IMG/VR virus record: IMGVR_UViG_3300030250_000049
Coordinates: 1-5,044 of that record
Direction: 5' to 3' (one strand)
Length of the DNA stretch: 5,044 bases
Source of the DNA: a virus
Each line of letters begins with the position of its first letter. Position 1 is the stretch's first letter. Both the position numbers and the translations under genes were made by a program. Positions 1 to 5,044 of this stretch are shown piece by piece. A model generated the notes under the pieces. It was given only the letters and a program-made list of their open reading frames with translations. It was not told the DNA's origin and did no database searches.

Positions 1-77
1 TAAAGTTTCATAAAAAATACCTCTAAAAATTTCAAAATTTTCTGTCTACCATTTACTGACTATAATGCGCATTCTGT
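1..77. repeat. Terminal direct repeat: bases 1-77 are identical to 4968-5044. This is the circular-closure overlap of a 4967-nt circular genome.
   Basis: Direct comparison of the two ends shows an exact 77/77 match with period 4967. The repeat is direct, not inverted. ORF-A and its RBS run across the junction, so the window is a circle opened inside the ORF-A 5' region. Confidence 0.95.
38..66 (+). promoter_or_regulatory. Candidate antisense (+ strand) promoter: perfect -10 TATAAT at 61-66, AT-rich upstream region, weak -35.
   Basis: TATAAT is perfect. The best -35 is ttttct (3/6) at 17-bp spacing, with an A/T-rich UP-like tract at 25-40. It would drive a transcript of about 360 nt ending at the 415-436 terminator. 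Confidence 0.25.
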
Positions 78-99
78 TAATTTCGGCTCAACCATTCAA
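71..99 (-). promoter_or_regulatory. Candidate sigma70-like promoter for the minus-strand operon: -35 TTGAAT (99-94), 17-nt spacer, -10 CAGAAT (76-71), about 55 nt upstream of the ORF-A start (wrapped).
   Basis: Read from the minus strand: cattaaTTGAATggttgagccgaaattaaCAGAATgcg. Weak alternatives are TTGAGC (91-86) with CATTAT (67-62) at 18-nt spacing. This is the only place a promoter for the whole gene string can sit. Confidence 0.25.
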
Positions 100-214
100 T
101 TAATGCTTTAATTAACCGACGAGCAGGGGAGAGCCAAAGAATGAACAATAAACAAATAAAAGGCAACATCATTTCCATATCAAAATCATAGCATGATTTT
201 AAAACGGTGTCAAC

Positions 215-250
215 TGGCAATATTAACGACGAGAGCATACCATATTGCCA
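215..250. promoter_or_regulatory. 9-bp perfect inverted repeat (tggcaatat ... atattgcca) with an 18-nt loop in the only large intergenic region. Candidate origin / Rep-recognition or complementary-strand origin hairpin.
   Basis: Stem 215-223 pairs with 242-250; loop 224-241. It is immediately preceded on the + strand by caact (211-215), and the stem contains atattaa, loosely echoing the phiX174 origin core CAACTTGATATTAATAAC. It sits in non-coding DNA. Confidence 0.35.
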
Positions 251-260
251 CGTTGCCGAA

Positions 261-270
261 AAAAAAAACG
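261..270. repeat. A10 homopolymer (T10 on the virion/mRNA strand), flanked by gccg/cggc.
   Basis: Plain A10 run at 261-270 in the intergenic region. The flanking gccg and cggc are complementary. Confidence 0.9.
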
Positions 271-323
271 GCGCAGTTTACACACTTTCCCACAATCACC
301 ACACGTTTAATTCGTGCGCTCAT

Positions 324-339
324 GTGGAAAAGTGGAAAA
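324..339. repeat. Tandem direct repeat gtggaaaa x2 (iteron-like) in the intergenic region, followed by a polypyrimidine mirror repeat ctctctttctctc at 346-358.
   Basis: Exact 8-mer copies at 324-331 and 332-339. The CT-only mirror-symmetric tract begins a few bases downstream. Confidence 0.8.
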
Positions 340-377
340 CTGCGCCTCTCTTTCTCTCGGCACCGCTTCCGCTACGG

Positions 378-899
378 TCAGCCCTCAAGGGGCTTCGTTG
401 ACACCGTTTCACTTTCCGCCGTAGGCGGATTTTTTTCCGGGGTTTGAACAGTCGGTACATGTGGCGATTCATGTGCATCGCCCTGAAGCGTTCCACTATT
501 CAAACGTATAGATTCAAGCTCATCTTTAAGCTCATGGGCACGAGCCAACAAATCAGAACGGCTCATGAAAAGCATATCATCTTGCGGCAGCTGCTCATCA
601 GCTTTTGCAAGCTCTTCATAAATCGCTCTATACTGCGGCGAATGCTTGAAATCAAGAAGCCGCTCACCGTCTGCAATCATACGTTTAATCTGCTTGTCTA
701 ACGGTACATATCCAGCGTCATCCACTCGGCGGCGGTTATAAACCCAGTCTGATACACTGGGAGGAGCGATACATTTATCCCATGGAGAGCGAAATTTCTT
801 TTCATCTTGCACGGCAAAATCATATTCAATTTTCTTCGGCTGCTTCTTTTCAATTGTTTTTTCAAAAGCAAGTTCGGCAATGTCTTTTTCTTCATCCAT
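378..899 (-). CDS. VP3: Putative internal scaffolding protein (VP3-like), acidic, 173 aa from the ATG at 899. The ORF track starts it at 917 (179 aa).
   Basis: The ATG at 899-897 is preceded by GAGGAA with a 5-nt spacer that overlaps the VP1 stop (aTGTGAGGAAtttATG). The 917 start has no SD and would overlap VP1. The protein is highly charged and D/E-rich, its position is immediately after VP1, and its size fits VP3 of gokushoviruses. Product assignment is by position and composition, not by a motif I recognise. Confidence 0.5.
   Translation of the reverse strand: MDEEKDIAELAFEKTIEKKQPKKIEYDFAVQDEKKFRSPWDKCIAPPSVSDWVYNRRRVDDAGYVPLDKQIKRMIADGERLLDFKHSPQYRAIYEELAKADEQLPQDDMLFMSRSDLLARAHELKDELESIRLNSGTLQGDAHESPHVPTVQTPEKNPPTAESETVSTKPLEG
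415..436 (+). terminator. Intrinsic-terminator-shaped element on the + strand, antisense to all genes: GC-rich 6-bp stem tccgcc/ggcgga, 3-nt loop, then T7.
   Basis: Stem 415-420 pairs with 424-429, loop gta, and the T-run is 430-436. On the minus (coding) strand the same bases encode VP3 residues E-K-N-P-P-T-A-E and read as A7 followed by the hairpin. It therefore cannot terminate the genes' own transcripts. Confidence 0.4.
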
Positions 900-906
900 A
901 AATTCC

Positions 907-2589
907 TCACATATCATGATCCATTCGACCAGGCTCTGGGTAAGCTGTAATCGGTCTTACTGCGTCCAAAATCGTAGCGAACTGACAAATAATTCCTGGC
1001 TCTGACTGAACGGCATAAATCTTCTTTGATTCGCTAGGCTTGCATTCAATAAAATCAGCGTCCAGTTCCGGGCGGCTATCAAAATGACGGCTGAAATTCC
1101 AATATGCGTAAGTATCACGCATAGCACCACAAGCAAGACTTGTTCCGGCTCGCATTTCATTCCAACGACCTTGAAAACCCCAAATCTTGGTATCATCTTC
1201 AGTATTATCTACGTAAAGTTCACCGGCGTAAATTCCTTGCTCCGACAAATTACAAAGCTGAGGCAAATAGAAATCATAACGGCTTTTCTTAAACCACTGT
1301 CTATTTACGCCTTGAGTATAAAGCGGAGTAGGGCGGCAGAAAACAATACCAACAAGACAGCCATATTCCTCGGCAAAATACTTTCCAACATAATTCGAAG
1401 CAACTGAAATTCCATGTCCGGCTTGAGTACCCTGGGCGGAGCTATCAGTAGTCTGTGAAGTCTGCAAAACCTCATTAATTACTACTGGAACCTTTCTTGC
1501 ACCAATAAACTCCGGTCTTTGAAGTCTTGAATCCTTTGGAGAAACAGAGAAGAAAGAACGAAGATATTCAGTGTAACGGCTTCCAGTACGGTTAGCACGC
1601 TCAAGAATCTTCTGAATCTGGATGACTGTACGAAGCTCCGAAACGTCAAATGTAGTTGCGTCAGCAAGTTTAACAGATAACAAAGAAGTATCATCATCTT
1701 TAACTTTCAAATCACGAGGACTTAAAAAATAAACAGAACCGTCAGGACTACTAGCTTGCCACGCATACGAACGCTTATCACCGGAATTAGAACCAGTAGG
1801 AGAATAAGATAAATTTAAAAAATTTGTACCACTTGCCGGAAGTGGATCACCATTAGAAGAGCCAACTCGCTTATAATTAAACCAAACCGGCAACTCACCA
1901 CTAAGCGGCAAACTTGGCGCAATTCCTTTCTGCTGAGAGAGTAGAGCAGAAGTAAAATAGTCCTTTTTCCAAGCAACATTAAAAATTCCGTATTCCTCTT
2001 GGTCAACAGTAGTAGACGGAACAAGGGAATTGTCAAAATCACGCTTGGTAACCATTAATTTACGCTTACGCTGCAGATTCTCATCTCTGAACCACTCATT
2101 GTAAATGCTATGATAAGCACGGATAAAATAATCTGTACACATCTTAGCAATCGGAGAATTTGAAGTAAGACCAACAGGCAAACCGGCATAATCCATAAGA
2201 CTATACTTTTTTACAGTCTGAACATTAACGTCTGAAAAATTAGAGCCAATGCTAGGAAATGAATAGTCAAATGCAACCGGGTTTCCTTCTTCGTCCAGGT
2301 CTTCATCATCTCCGCCAGTAATTCCTCTCTCAAAATTGGGGTCAAGATTACGATAAGGCACAAAGAAATAAAAAGCCCAGAAATCCAATTTTCCCATAAC
2401 TGGACTAACAAGCGGCTTAAAACGGTTGATAACATTAAAGTAAATCTTGAAATTATCACCAGGAACCATATCACGAAATTCCACCGGAATAGCCTGGCCG
2501 ATGTCATAATCAAATGAACGCTCATCAACAAGAGTTCTTCTGGAACGCTTTGGAACTAAAGAGCGTATACTGTTAAATGGATCACTCAA
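907..2589 (-). CDS. VP1: Major capsid protein (VP1 / F-protein family), 560 aa, TTG start.
   Basis: This is the only ORF of its size in the window. The N-terminal region SFDYDIGQAIPVEFRDMVPGDNF...PLVSPVMGKLDFWAFYFFVPYR matches the conserved gokushovirus VP1 N-terminus (...SFD...PGD.F...P.MG..D.....FFVP.R). The start is the TTG at 2589-2587, preceded by GGAGGA with a 6-nt spacer (tttGGAGGAataaagTTG). The first in-frame ATG, at aa 41, would delete the conserved N-terminus. The stop TGA is at 909-907. Confidence 0.92.
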   Translation of the reverse strand: MSDPFNSIRSLVPKRSRRTLVDERSFDYDIGQAIPVEFRDMVPGDNFKIYFNVINRFKPLVSPVMGKLDFWAFYFFVPYRNLDPNFERGITGGDDEDLDEEGNPVAFDYSFPSIGSNFSDVNVQTVKKYSLMDYAGLPVGLTSNSPIAKMCTDYFIRAYHSIYNEWFRDENLQRKRKLMVTKRDFDNSLVPSTTVDQEEYGIFNVAWKKDYFTSALLSQQKGIAPSLPLSGELPVWFNYKRVGSSNGDPLPASGTNFLNLSYSPTGSNSGDKRSYAWQASSPDGSVYFLSPRDLKVKDDDTSLLSVKLADATTFDVSELRTVIQIQKILERANRTGSRYTEYLRSFFSVSPKDSRLQRPEFIGARKVPVVINEVLQTSQTTDSSAQGTQAGHGISVASNYVGKYFAEEYGCLVGIVFCRPTPLYTQGVNRQWFKKSRYDFYLPQLCNLSEQGIYAGELYVDNTEDDTKIWGFQGRWNEMRAGTSLACGAMRDTYAYWNFSRHFDSRPELDADFIECKPSESKKIYAVQSEPGIICQFATILDAVRPITAYPEPGRMDHDM

Positions 2590-3487
2590 CTTTATTCCTC
2601 CAAATAGTATTATTAAAACGGTAATTAATATTATGCTCTACCATGTTAGCCTGGTAAACATATTCCAACATATCCTCATTCACAACGGATTTAAACCGTC
2701 TTGAAATAGGGTCATAAAAACTATGAGATAAACCACGCTTGCGAGCTTCCGCAAATCTCTTGCGCCTATGCTCATGCGTCATACAAGTATAGTAATCTGT
2801 CAAAGAATCGCTAAAATGAGGCGGAAAAGCATGGCAAACCTTAAGTTTTTTCTTATAATAACGGGGTAGGGGCGCAACCTTACCACGCCACGGACAACCA
2901 TGGATTGACATAAGCCTGTCAAAATTAGCAATAAAATACTGGTAGCCTATACCCTGTGATTGCAGCTGAAAAGGCGGAATTCTTCCGGTTGTCGAATAAA
3001 CCGAATTAGGAACTTTTCCATAAAGCTTTTTCTGAATGTAACCGGCAACATAACTACACGTCTTTTGATTAACATCATCATAACTTTTTCCTTTACACCA
3101 AAAAAAATCAGCCTGATAAGTCCAGCATTTCTTGACTATCTCAACATCAGCTCTATCAATACCAAAAATAATTGCGTGATAATGAGGACGACCTTTTGTG
3201 CCATACTCACCACACGCAAAATACTTAATAAAGCGTCCATGCAAATTTTTTCGAAGCCTCTTAAAGAATTTCTGCAAGTCTGATTTAACCAAAGTAGCAT
3301 TTTCCGGCAAGAACTCCGGCGCATAAGTCAGAGTGATGAAAAGGGCTTTTCCGTGAAAACTCTCATACTCATGGAGCATACGGATTGCCCATTCTCGAAC
3401 ACGGTTTATACGGCAAGGCATACACCGACCGCAAGGAAATTCAAGACCACTTTTATCTTTATAAGGTTTCAAACAAATCATATACAA
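2582..3487 (-). CDS. VP4: Replication initiation protein (VP4; HUH rolling-circle endonuclease). 301 aa from the TTG at 3487, or 299 aa from the ATG at 3481.
   Basis: N-terminal Cys cluster PCGRCMPCR at aa 18-26. Motif I is FITLTY (aa 50-55). The HUH motif HYHAIIF is at aa 102-108 (nt 3184-3164). The double-Tyr catalytic motif SYVAGYIQKK (aa 145-154) matches the phiX174 gene A pattern YVAKYVNKK. The N-terminus MICLKPYK is typical of gokushovirus VP4. The stop TGA at 2584-2582 overlaps the VP1 start region by 8 nt. Confidence 0.92.
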   Translation of the reverse strand: MYMICLKPYKDKSGLEFPCGRCMPCRINRVREWAIRMLHEYESFHGKALFITLTYAPEFLPENATLVKSDLQKFFKRLRKNLHGRFIKYFACGEYGTKGRPHYHAIIFGIDRADVEIVKKCWTYQADFFWCKGKSYDDVNQKTCSYVAGYIQKKLYGKVPNSVYSTTGRIPPFQLQSQGIGYQYFIANFDRLMSIHGCPWRGKVAPLPRYYKKKLKVCHAFPPHFSDSLTDYYTCMTHEHRRKRFAEARKRGLSHSFYDPISRRFKSVVNEDMLEYVYQANMVEHNINYRFNNTIWRNKVE

Positions 3488-3495
3488 TCATATAC
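3476..3495. repeat. Perfect 10-bp tandem duplication (aatcatatac x2 on +; GTATATGATT x2 on the coding strand) spanning the J-like stop and the VP4 start.
   Basis: 3476-3485 equals 3486-3495. It places two ATGA motifs 10 nt apart: the first carries the J-like stop plus an out-of-frame decoy ATG (10 codons), and the second is the in-frame VP4 ATG. Confidence 0.85.
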
Positions 3496-3556
3496 GAATA
3501 CCACCACGTCCAACACGGACTGAATGAATCCGACGACCTCGGCGACGTCTACGCAT
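3488..3556 (-). CDS. 22-aa arginine-rich peptide (MRRRRRGRRIHSVRVGRGGIRI). Candidate DNA-binding/packaging protein analogous to phiX174 J or the gokushovirus ORF8/VP8.
   Basis: Perfect GGAGG at 3566-3562, a 5-nt spacer, then ATG at 3556-3554. Ten of 22 residues are Arg. The stop TGA at 3490-3488 is immediately followed by the VP4 TTG/ATG. The peptide sits between the capsid-associated genes and rep, consistent with a small basic DNA-condensing protein. Confidence 0.6.
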   Translation of the reverse strand: MRRRRRGRRIHSVRVGRGGIRI

Positions 3557-3557
3557 T

Positions 3558-3659
3558 CTAACCTCCTATAGAAGCAAACAAATCCAATAACATTTTGCCA
3601 ACAGTGACAACAATGTTAAGCACAACTGTACCAATAGTTATCTTGGTTTCCTTATTCAT
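3558..3659 (-). CDS. 33-aa single-pass transmembrane peptide (MNKETKITIGTVVLNIVVTVGKMLLDLFASIGG). It is not in the ORF track and is a candidate membrane/lysis-type protein.
   Basis: Perfect GGAGG at 3670-3666, a 6-nt spacer, then ATG at 3659-3657. That ATG overlaps the VP2 stop (ATGA). The peptide has a charged N-terminus (MNKETK) followed by about 26 hydrophobic residues. The stop TAG is at 3560-3558. It lies in an otherwise unexplained 168-nt gap between VP2 and VP4 and overlaps no other gene. Confidence 0.55.
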   Translation of the reverse strand: MNKETKITIGTVVLNIVVTVGKMLLDLFASIGG

Positions 3660-4513
3660 TTTTTACCTCCAAAACCAAATATAGATTTTCCGAGCTCACC
3701 AATAGACTCAAAAAAACCGCTAAGTCCATTCTTGACAGAATTAACAGCATTAGGAACACCAATGCCAACTGCATTATTGGCAGTCAAAAGGGGTAAACCC
3801 CATTGAGAACCATAAAGCTTAGACGGCTGAATACCGAATTTCTGATTATAAACTCTATCCCAATCAGAAAAATAAAGCTCATTATTCAAAATGTCAGTCT
3901 TATATTGCTGCGCCTTTATCTGATTCTCCTTAGTACGTTCAAGAATTTCATTACTAAAAGCTTGATTCTTATTTTTCAAATCAAGCCCATAATTCCGAAG
4001 CTTGTACCAATCGCCAGCATTCTCGCCAAATATCAGCTTATTAGCAGTATCGGCTTGGACATTCTTAGATTGATTCTGCAAATACTCAATTTCAGACTTT
4101 TGCCTATTAAGCTCACCAACTGCCTTCAAAGCGTCAAGACCGGCACCTATCATAGAACTAAGTCCATAAGTCGGCATAATCTTAGGCGAATAATCATTAT
4201 GCAAGGCTTGAGTTTCAATAGCCTGGCCGGCATTAGCGGCACTACCAGCGGCAAGGGTAGGACTAAGACCGGCAGCAACCAAATCATCTACACGTCTCCG
4301 GACTGCGTTATCCTCACGAGCAAAAATTTGTTTCTGCAAATCTTTCTGATACTGCAAGTTCTCATTCTGAAATTGCAAGTTCTGATTCGCAATATCTTTG
4401 TTCGCCTGGTTAGTCTTATCCGTATTGCGCATATTTCCTAAAGTGTCTATTAAACTAGACACTCCGGGAAGTGCGGCAGTAGCAATACTACCAATAGTTC
4501 CAAGAACAGACAT
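3656..4513 (-). CDS. VP2: Minor capsid / DNA pilot protein (VP2-like, 285 aa).
   Basis: Hydrophobic N-terminus (MSVLGTIGSIATAALPGV). A long Q/N/K-rich predicted coiled coil follows. The motif FAREDNAVRRRVDDLVAAGLSPTLA resembles the conserved (Q)R.V.D..AAGLNP block of gokushovirus VP2 proteins. The C-terminus is Gly-rich. GAGGA lies 9 nt upstream of the ATG. The stop TGA at 3658-3656 overlaps the next ATG as ATGA. Confidence 0.8.
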   Translation of the reverse strand: MSVLGTIGSIATAALPGVSSLIDTLGNMRNTDKTNQANKDIANQNLQFQNENLQYQKDLQKQIFAREDNAVRRRVDDLVAAGLSPTLAAGSAANAGQAIETQALHNDYSPKIMPTYGLSSMIGAGLDALKAVGELNRQKSEIEYLQNQSKNVQADTANKLIFGENAGDWYKLRNYGLDLKNKNQAFSNEILERTKENQIKAQQYKTDILNNELYFSDWDRVYNQKFGIQPSKLYGSQWGLPLLTANNAVGIGVPNAVNSVKNGLSGFFESIGELGKSIFGFGGKK

Positions 4514-4710
4514 TAGCCATTATCCTCATCAAAACCGAACTCTTGCTGAATTTCCTTTGAATAAGCTAATGAAACTTCTGCAACAGTCTGACGGCAAAGA
4601 AGCAATTCAGAAGCATTGTAATCATTGTGCTGCTTTTGTTCACAGTTAATCAAATAACGCTGCTGCTTATCCAACAACTGCAAAATATAAAACAAGTTCT
4701 TAGTCTTCAT
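4513..4710 (-). CDS. Hypothetical small protein ORF-B (65 aa, predicted helical, acidic C-terminus ...EFGFDEDNG). Its stop overlaps the VP2 start.
   Basis: The ATG at 4710-4708 is preceded by GGAG with a 7-nt spacer (ccGGAGttgcgtaATG). The track's TTG start at 4743 lacks an SD. The stop TAA at 4515-4513 overlaps the VP2 ATG as TAATG, which is translational coupling. Confidence 0.55.
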   Translation of the reverse strand: MKTKNLFYILQLLDKQQRYLINCEQKQHNDYNASELLLCRQTVAEVSLAYSKEIQQEFGFDEDNG

Positions 4711-4978
4711 TACGCAACTCCGGCAATAAATCAAGCATTTCAATCTCTTTTACAAGAATCCAATCAGAATGACTTTTTGAATCCTCTGGACAAACATTTC
4801 CATGTTCATATTCATAAATTGAAAATCCATCACGCAAGAAACCGGGTTTTCTTCCTTTTCCATTCTTCACATCTTCAAAGCAATCTTTAAAAGAACGCTC
4901 CAAAGTCGCTTCATTCTGCATAAAAAAACAACTTACATCTTCATTTGCAATTTGGTCATGTACTACATAAAGTTTCAT
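4700..4978 (-). CDS. Hypothetical small acidic protein ORF-A (92 aa from the ATG at 4978; the ORF track extends it to a TTG at 5002). First gene downstream of the intergenic region.
   Basis: The minus-strand ATG at 4978-4976 is preceded by GAGG with an 8-nt spacer (gaGAGGtattttttATG). The TTG at 5002 has no SD. The ORF is 93 codons with the acidic tail ...EIEMLDLLPELRNED. Its stop TAA at 4702-4700 lies 11 nt inside ORF-B. I recognise no family. Confidence 0.6.
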   Translation of the reverse strand: MKLYVVHDQIANEDVSCFFMQNEATLERSFKDCFEDVKNGKGRKPGFLRDGFSIYEYEHGNVCPEDSKSHSDWILVKEIEMLDLLPELRNED

Positions 4979-5044
4979 AAAAAATACCTCTAAAAATTTC
5001 AAAATTTTCTGTCTACCATTTACTGACTATAATGCGCATTCTGT
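4968..5044. repeat. Second copy of the terminal redundancy, identical to 1-77.
   Basis: Exact match to 1-77. Base 4967 (a) and base 78 (t) flank the repeat. Confidence 0.95.

Follow-up and report, generated by a model that had tools for sequence, protein, structure and literature searches.

The described proteins that come closest to pep33, an open reading frame (ORF) of 33 amino acids (aa), are the single-helix lysis proteins and holins of phages and a chromosomal toxin. pep33 lies in a 5,044-nucleotide (nt) stretch of viral DNA, positions 1 to 5,044 of the IMG/VR virus record IMGVR_UViG_3300030250_000049, which was analyzed over its whole length and is called the window here. The protein E of the microvirus phiX174 (Bullavirinae) inhibits MraY together with the host protein SlyD, its helix binding within the membrane. 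E is 91 aa long, overprinted in gene D and weakly expressed, and it combines a Leu-rich, strongly hydrophobic helix and an essential proline with a basic C-terminal domain. Like E, pep33 would be a small microvirus protein whose active part is one transmembrane helix, in a phage without a holin-endolysin pair; unlike E, it has 33 residues, is not overprinted, has a consensus ribosome-binding site (RBS), contains many Val, Ile and Thr residues in addition to a polar stripe along the helix, and carries no tail. In searches against the E family (Pfam Microvir_lysis) and the other profiles, there was no Pfam match at E<=1 and no PHROG match better than E=0.6, and judged by its sequence pep33 is not a member of the phiX174 E family.

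Nearer in size is LysM, or SglM, of the single-stranded RNA (ssRNA) phage M, a 37-aa protein that blocks the lipid II flippase MurJ (PMC12506998). LysM and pep33 are of almost equal length and each is essentially one transmembrane helix; however, LysM belongs to an ssRNA phage of Enterobacteria and has no detected sequence relationship with pep33, the host of which is a spirochaete. Holins and pinholins can also be likened to pep33, being membrane helices with polar residues that oligomerise, that are abundant late and that are often exchanged between phages. They are usually at least 60 aa long, though, with a charged C-terminal tail and a paired endolysin, whereas pep33 ends with its helix; it has no charged tail, and no endolysin gene is recognisable beside it. 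TisB is a 29-aa amphipathic transmembrane helix with a polar 'charge zipper' stripe, small oligomers of which depolarise the membrane. It would resemble pep33 in its similar length and in the narrow polar or charged stripe on a hydrophobic helix; unlike pep33, it is a chromosomal type I toxin under the control of an antisense RNA, and it has neither a sequence relationship with pep33 nor a phage context.

A sequence-only reading of the window had presented pep33 as an unannotated ORF. That can no longer be said, for the identical 33-aa sequence is in GenBank as DAO53681.1 ('MAG TPA: hypothetical protein [Microviridae sp.]'), an entry that consists of the gene call alone, naming neither a function nor a family and carrying no comment, and gene callers also report it in assemblies. 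No description of the family, its conservation, its host or its presence in two unrelated phage groups was found in the literature searched.

The pattern of substitution and the translation signals together indicate that pep33 is a real gene under very strong purifying selection and efficiently translated. To avoid selecting on the peptide itself, relatives were fetched with VP4, the replication initiator, as the anchor, which gave L097-L099 (97% VP4 identity), L100 (87%), L177/L178 (71%), L179 (47%) and L180 (43%). The sequence-only reading had named absence or disruption of the ORF in close relatives as one of the observations that would tell against it; every one of the VP4-fetched relatives has an intact small ORF in the same slot, of 33 aa in the nearer ones (L097-L100, L177/L178) and of 45 aa in L179/L180. 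Among the sequences obtained in this way, the variable sites at codon positions 1/2/3 number 5/1/24, and the other five frames are closed by stops, except for one antisense frame in L081. By the Nei-Gojobori method, pep33 and its counterpart in L177 differ by 16 synonymous and 4 non-synonymous changes (synonymous divergence, dS, ~1.7; ratio of non-synonymous to synonymous divergence, dN/dS, ~0.03), the synonymous sites being near saturation, and the comparison with L100 gives 11.5 synonymous and 3.5 non-synonymous changes (dN/dS ~0.06). Residues 9-27 are unchanged across all known 33-aa variants. Within the clade the identity of pep33 is 94-100%, as compared to 77-87% for VP1, 71-97% for VP4 and 74-79% for VP2, and pep33 is the most conserved protein of the genome. 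In the relatives from Treponema succinifaciens it is unchanged while VP2 varies both in sequence and in length (285, 286, 292, 303 aa).

The window comprises one 4,967-nt circular microvirus genome unit plus a 77-nt terminal redundancy. Every gene is on the minus strand, in the co-directional string VP5-like, 65-aa ORF, VP2, pep33, VP8-like, VP4, VP1 and VP3, and the features are as follows.

185..213, minus strand: sigma-70-like promoter match, the best in the window (TTGACA-17-TATGAT, 11/12, extended -10 TG), a match to the consensus only
First gene of the string, minus strand: VP5/ORF5-like ORF, weak match to PF20577
4513-4710, minus strand: 65-aa ORF between the VP5-like gene and VP2
3656..4513, minus strand: VP2 DNA pilot protein gene, 285 aa (phrog_11693 and phrog_8689, pilot protein; tblastn matches to annotated DNA pilot proteins)
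3558..3659, minus strand: pep33, 33-aa ORF MNKETKITIGTVVLNIVVTVGKMLLDLFASIGG, TAG stop at 3558-3560
3488..3556, minus strand: VP8/J-like 22-aa Arg-rich ORF MRRRRRGRRIHSVRVGRGGIRI, rich in Arg and Lys, at the VP8 position
2582..3481, minus strand: VP4 replication initiator (Rep) gene, start ATG at 3481 (phrog_942, PF23343)
2589..907, minus strand: VP1 capsid gene (PF02305, 1.4e-85)
917..378, minus strand: VP3-like ORF

With a Phage_F capsid protein of ~550 aa, VP2, the VP4 Rep and the VP5-like ORF, and with no external scaffold or spike genes, the window has the gene content of a gokushovirus-type microvirus, and the records nearest to it are gokushovirus-like Microviridae. Neither the annotated phage collection nor IMG/VR held close relatives, with a megablast match of 36 nt only, an empty VP2 scan and VP4 identity of <=50%; the relatives were obtained through an exact-peptide look-up and from metagenome contigs.

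The ORF runs from 3659 to 3558 on the minus strand, as the sequence-only reading had it, and most of what that reading said of its start holds as well: a GGAGG (3670-3666) is followed by the 6-nt spacer TAAAAA and the ATG (3659-3657), the ATG overlaps the VP2 stop (TGA, 3658-3656) as ATGA, and those 4 nt are all that pep33 shares with any other gene. Read as the reverse complement, the junction is ..TTT GGA GGT AAA AAA TGA, and ATG AAT AAG.. begins one base before the TGA. The Shine-Dalgarno sequence (3666..3670) sits within the final VP2 codons (..GGKK*). The signals had been rated the best in the window; they equal the best and are not uniquely so, as a full GGAGG precedes pep33, the VP8-like Arg-rich ORF and VP1, and no other gene. 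A further statement, that pep33 alone fills a 168-nt gap, had to be dropped, since the 22-aa Arg-rich ORF (3556..3488), which that reading had overlooked, takes up the remainder. All the relatives have GGAGG or AGGAGG 5-9 nt upstream of the peptide ORF, and the type of junction with VP2 differs among them, being ATGA, TAATG, an 8-nt overlap or a 9-nt spacer. We also considered a VP2-pep33 fusion made by -1 frameshifting on GGT AAA AAA TGA, and rejected it because neither the run of A residues nor the relationship of the frames is conserved, relatives having AAG AAG AAA TGA, TAATG, the 8-nt overlap or the 9-nt spacer instead.

The AlphaFold2 model of pep33 is one continuous helix over residues 3-32 (mean predicted local distance difference test score, pLDDT, 89.6), and the codons of the helix core, residues 7-31, lie at about 3567-3641. 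A hydrophobic helix of about 26 residues had been predicted by eye. The single long membrane-type helix stands, but its uninterrupted hydrophobic run is only 15 residues (7-21), with K22 and D26 inside the rest; the two have i/i+4 spacing and could neutralise each other. The Kyte-Doolittle maximum for a 19-residue window, at 7-25, has a mean of 1.97 against a threshold of 1.6, and pep33 would be a moderately rather than strongly hydrophobic membrane helix. On a helical wheel, E4, T8, T11, N15, T19, K22, D26 and S30 fall on one face and form a polar stripe. The hydrophobic moment of residues 7-31 was reached by 0.4% of shuffled sequences, and that of the 45-aa homologues by 1-2%, a result that is suggestive only, the windows having been picked after the sequence was viewed. 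Asn15 is invariant in every family alignment (A1-A4). Polar residues within membrane helices, and Asn especially, drive helix-helix association, and the invariance of Asn15 therefore suggests that the helix probably acts by a specific association of this kind. The 33-aa form ends ..LFASIGG straight after the helix, and the 45-aa forms have a 17-residue tail with a net charge of ~0.

An exact look-up found the identical peptide in 305 blocks of a public assembly collection. The loci are prophages in contigs, the longest of 340 kb, that come from human gut samples including Hadza and Nepali ones, and they are located between a TIGR03936 radical-SAM gene and mfd, the flanking radical-SAM protein being WP_273466834 / AEB14159 of Treponema succinifaciens. 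On either side of the prophage there is a perfect 23-nt direct repeat ACAGAATGCGCATTATAGTCAGT (window 55-77 and 5022-5044, minus strand; L081 3620-3642 and 8576-8598), and L084 has a tandem prophage copy. The virus is thus a temperate microvirus of T. succinifaciens, circular or integrated. It encodes no integrase, which makes the Xer recombination of the host a candidate lead for integration; the 23-nt att core contains TGCGCAT, reminiscent of a XerC arm or dif half-site.

The wider distribution of the family was approached with alignments that had a 45-aa homologue as their first sequence. Among 5.8 billion proteins, word-indexed profile searches returned only 11 clusters, and an exhaustive hidden Markov model search of 1.84 billion representatives returned five (E 5.8e-22 to 8.9e-4). 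Beyond the query's own members there were three new clusters, P0152-P0154, and none of these is in a microvirus: their contigs carry the genes of phi29-like podoviruses, namely a DNA_pol_B_2 of the protein-primed type, the Podovirus_Gp16 ATPase, Phage_connector and Phi29_MCP. The loci are L186 6894-7146, L188 8002-8276 and L182 394-616, and L186, an 11.8-kb contig at 436x coverage, came from a Hadza gut sample; samples of this kind also yielded the Treponema prophages. P0154 and the 45-aa microvirus peptides are identical, by eye, at 11/15 core residues and have a common ..KVA..L..GG tail, and on this evidence they are clearly homologous. Directly behind the podovirus homologue comes another small transmembrane ORF, 30-37 aa long, and two of the three such ORFs end ..GGI(N/ML). 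One podovirus member only has a weak match to phrog_814 (E=0.0026).

In related microviruses the family is narrow. Surveys covered 99-122 loci anchored on VP4, the 99 being non-redundant. The sequence-only reading had proposed a search of such genomes for a conserved small hydrophobic ORF at the VP2/VP4 junction; over the 99 non-redundant loci this feature exists, in the pep33 family and in a few unrelated cases, but it is not general in gokushoviruses. We accordingly set aside the idea of pep33 as a general gokushovirus feature, the hydrophobic ORF being confined to its family plus the few unrelated analogues, such as those of L122 and PQ006220. In L122 an unrelated 36-aa ORF MSELDKLLKTIRFLLIIGVIIFLLYHILIFVGLMGG has its own RBS and an ATGA-type overlap with the VP2 stop, and ends GG; in L181 (1175-1321; GenBank PQ006220.1) an unrelated 48-aa 'hypothetical protein' MNGDLFSDVMKDVSIFVISNKYLFAILPIVALLLVMICIRLIIKCVKK comes immediately after the pilot gene. 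Counted anywhere in the genome, intergenic small transmembrane ORFs are rare as well, occurring in 10/116 contigs. The comparison suggests that pep33 is a clade-specific accessory gene and that the position behind VP2 was occupied on more than one independent occasion. As a gene confined to a very small family, pep33 cannot be 'the' lysis gene of gokushoviruses.

What the peptide might do has to be considered against the rest of the genome. Pfam and PHROG scans of all eight ORFs recognised no muralytic enzyme, holin or other membrane protein; they showed only the capsid protein, the pilot protein, the Rep and the ORF5-like protein. A very small phage genome without a recognisable holin-endolysin cassette, such as hosts the single-gene lysis (Sgl) proteins, or amurins (phiX174 E, Qbeta A2, LysM, MS2 L), is what we find here (4,967 nt). 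E, LysM, L and most Sgls from metagenomes are small products with a helix that spans the membrane; for pep33 the AlphaFold2 helix and the Kyte-Doolittle mean point to one, but the summed Hessa energy is positive and K22 and D26 fall within the segment. The earlier remark that no gokushovirus lysis gene has been described still holds in the literature searched, and an inhibitor of peptidoglycan synthesis has been called 'markedly absent' in gokushoviruses, the lysis mechanism of microviruses other than the phiX174 group being an acknowledged gap (PMC7062461). Only two kinds of accessory gene, lysis peptidases and methyltransferases, have been described as spreading into microviruses (PMC3394797, PMC9239249). 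The second role offered by the sequence-only reading, that of a membrane anchor for DNA delivery, is weakened in its microvirus-specific form because the homologues on phi29-like podovirus contigs serve a different virion architecture. As pep33 does not co-vary with VP2 and has these phi29-like homologues, its function is most likely directed at the host membrane and not at the microvirus particle.

Among the roles directed at the host, lysis or egress is favoured because the genome has no other candidate, because gokushoviruses have no known lysis gene, because lysis genes are the main class known to enter microviruses, and because peptides as small as LysM, at 37 aa, can be complete lysis proteins. 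It can be hypothesized that the product is a single 30-residue alpha-helix in the cytoplasmic membrane with its N-terminus inside, Lys3 and Lys6 being on the N-terminal flank, and that the face with the polar stripe and Asn15 mediates a specific helix-helix association. The partner might be pep33 itself, which as an oligomer would form a membrane lesion like those of holins, viroporins or TisB, or it might be a conserved host membrane protein of cell-envelope synthesis, as MraY is for phiX174 E and MurJ for LysM. In either case the association would damage the host envelope and release the progeny, making pep33 a single small lysis or egress factor. By analogy with these systems we propose this role tentatively, at somewhat less than an even chance. 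A more specific form of the proposal is more doubtful: pep33 would be the first Sgl of a microvirus outside the phiX group, would kill the spirochaete through an envelope-biogenesis protein bound by the Asn stripe or through a minimal pore, and would have been exchanged with phi29-like podoviruses sharing the host.

Several findings weigh against a lysis function. Searches of Pfam, PHROGs and PDB sequences matched pep33 to no lysis protein or holin, and they led us to discard its membership in any known family. The summed Hessa energy is ~+2.7 kcal/mol for pep33 and ~-3.4 for phiX174 E. Poor conservation is typical of the known single-gene lysis proteins, and pep33 is the best-conserved protein in its clade. 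Its RBS matches that of the major capsid gene in strength, and so strong a site, together with a place between two virion-protein genes, would be no less fitting for an abundant or structural protein than for a lysis protein. In the podoviruses the homologue stands within the block of morphogenesis genes, with a connector-proximal gene on one side and the putative scaffold and capsid genes on the other, and no endolysin was recognised near it on contigs of 9-12 kb that are possibly incomplete. The link to these longer forms is itself only probable: homology between the 33-aa form and those of 45-49 aa is drawn from synteny and a modest profile score. It is considered probable because the 33-aa form and P0153 have LNIVV.V in common, because the alignment of the 33-aa with the longer forms is gap-free over 27 columns (hhalign P = 6e-4, probability 29%), and because the 33-aa forms occupy the same slot as the 45-aa forms. 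Finally, most relatives have no such ORF and must therefore lyse by other means.

Three other readings have to be set beside lysis or egress. A helix in the inner membrane could modify the host without lysing it, for instance in superinfection exclusion, by blocking the DNA entry or another step of competing phages. The phage is temperate, its prophages lying between 23-nt repeats in T. succinifaciens chromosomes, and small single-pass membrane proteins are commonly exclusion factors; likewise, a gene shared with podoviruses of the same habitat would suit a host-directed accessory function, and the extreme conservation would suit a fixed target in the host or in a phage. The location is harder to reconcile with such a role, as the gene stands amid the structural and replication string, coupled to VP2, with no promoter-like site immediately upstream, and the podovirus homologues are in a late morphogenesis block. 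We regard exclusion or a similar modification as unlikely. That same location would be natural for an accessory of the virion, of assembly or of DNA delivery, whose helix would join VP2, or in the podoviruses the portal or tail machinery, and aid membrane crossing or docking. The translational coupling to VP2 directly before the gene of a putative packaged DNA-binding peptide, an RBS equal to that of the major capsid gene, the similar setting of the podovirus homologue among structural genes, and a polar stripe that could line or pack against a conduit are all consistent with it. Yet one family would then have to serve two unrelated virion architectures, microvirus and phi29-like; pep33 is invariant though the VP2 proteins differ strongly in length and in sequence, the C-terminal part included; the VP2 junction changes between relatives; and in the great majority of related microviruses VP2 and the VP8-like ORF are present but no such peptide is. 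A part in the particle is accordingly the less probable of these two, and we consider it quite unlikely.

The remaining reading assigns the peptide no function as a protein, the ORF being a coupling spacer, an upstream ORF delivering ribosomes to the VP8-like ORF or VP4, or a chance frame in AT-rich DNA. It is true that the final two codons also act as the Shine-Dalgarno sequence for the ORF downstream and show no nucleotide change, and that finding 33 open codons in a short gap would, by itself, not be very unlikely. However, it is the amino acids and not the nucleotides that are conserved (24 third as against 1 second variable positions, dN/dS 0.03-0.06), there are homologues in other genomic contexts, and the region has no Rfam match. 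The substitution pattern and the lack of an Rfam match exclude that the ORF arose by chance, that it is nothing but a coupling spacer or that it is an RNA element; a structured RNA or an alternative frame as the conserved object was rejected likewise, on the absent Rfam match, the third-position variation and the stops in the other frames (bar the one antisense frame in L081). The reading without a protein function is in effect already refuted by the substitution pattern, and we give it next to no weight. Whatever probability the four readings leave over, lysis or egress included, belongs to something we have not thought of.

For the question of how gokushoviruses leave their hosts, pep33 is a concrete candidate that can be cloned (99 coding bases), for lysis by a phage widespread in non-industrialised human guts, and for a narrow clade only. 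If it proved lytic, it would provide a new lead for a 'protein antibiotic' to be used on spirochaetes and a rare case of the transfer of a micro-gene between single-stranded and double-stranded DNA phages. Even if it is not lytic, the case illustrates that microvirus genes of 22-33 codons can be the most constrained in the genome. Such tiny genes are missed by size cut-offs, or remain bare 'hypothetical protein' calls without a Pfam or PHROGs family.

Two further hydrophobic ORFs, of 40 and 32 aa, are overprinted in another frame on the 3' part of VP2 (3652-3774 and 3784-3882, minus strand). They are seen in several close relatives, form a 77-aa fusion in L098, and are missing from L081/L082. 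As alternative lysis genes they were rejected, their translations altering non-conservatively or vanishing among close relatives, and they are probably by-products of the T-rich frame.

As regards transcription, a consensus-match scan of the window found no promoter-like site immediately upstream of pep33, and the nearby match at 3619..3592 falls inside the ORF. The promoter match at 185..213 is in the non-coding region upstream of the VP5/ORF5-like gene, and it is compatible with a single candidate promoter for a polycistronic transcript of the whole string through pep33. A strong terminator-like hairpin on the plus strand (415-439, TCCGCCGTAGGCGGA then TTTTTTT) is oriented against every gene of the window and falls within the 3' end of the VP3-like ORF. 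The 65-aa ORF (4513-4710) has 71-89% identity within the clade and no family match.

The VP8 of enterogokushoviruses is a putative DNA-binding protein encoded downstream of VP2 and directly upstream of VP4 (PMC7062461). The 22-aa Arg-rich ORF of the window has 45% Arg+Lys, adjoins VP4 upstream and is on the downstream side of VP2 and pep33. Its C-terminus is ..RIHSVRVGRGGIR[IL] in all clade members, and an Arg/Lys-rich ORF in the gap upstream of VP4, typically ending ..SRGGIRL, is found in 94/122 distant relatives. It resembles gokushovirus VP8 and phiX174 J in its very small size, its Arg richness, its position between VP2 and VP4 and the ..RGGIR[IL] end common to most relatives, and it is probably a VP8/J-like DNA-binding peptide. 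No profile match to it was found in Pfam or PHROGs, for which it is too short; it is too short for gene callers as well, with no call in L081-L086. Its Shine-Dalgarno sequence, GGAGG at 3562..3566 on the minus strand, is made by pep33 codons 32-33 (GGA GGT), 5 nt before its ATG, and no close relative has a nucleotide change in these two codons. The TGA of the Arg-rich ORF overlaps the VP4 ATG (ATGA) in every close relative; only this window has a 10-nt tandem duplication (GTATATGATT x2, 3476-3495, minus strand), which puts 6 nt between the two.

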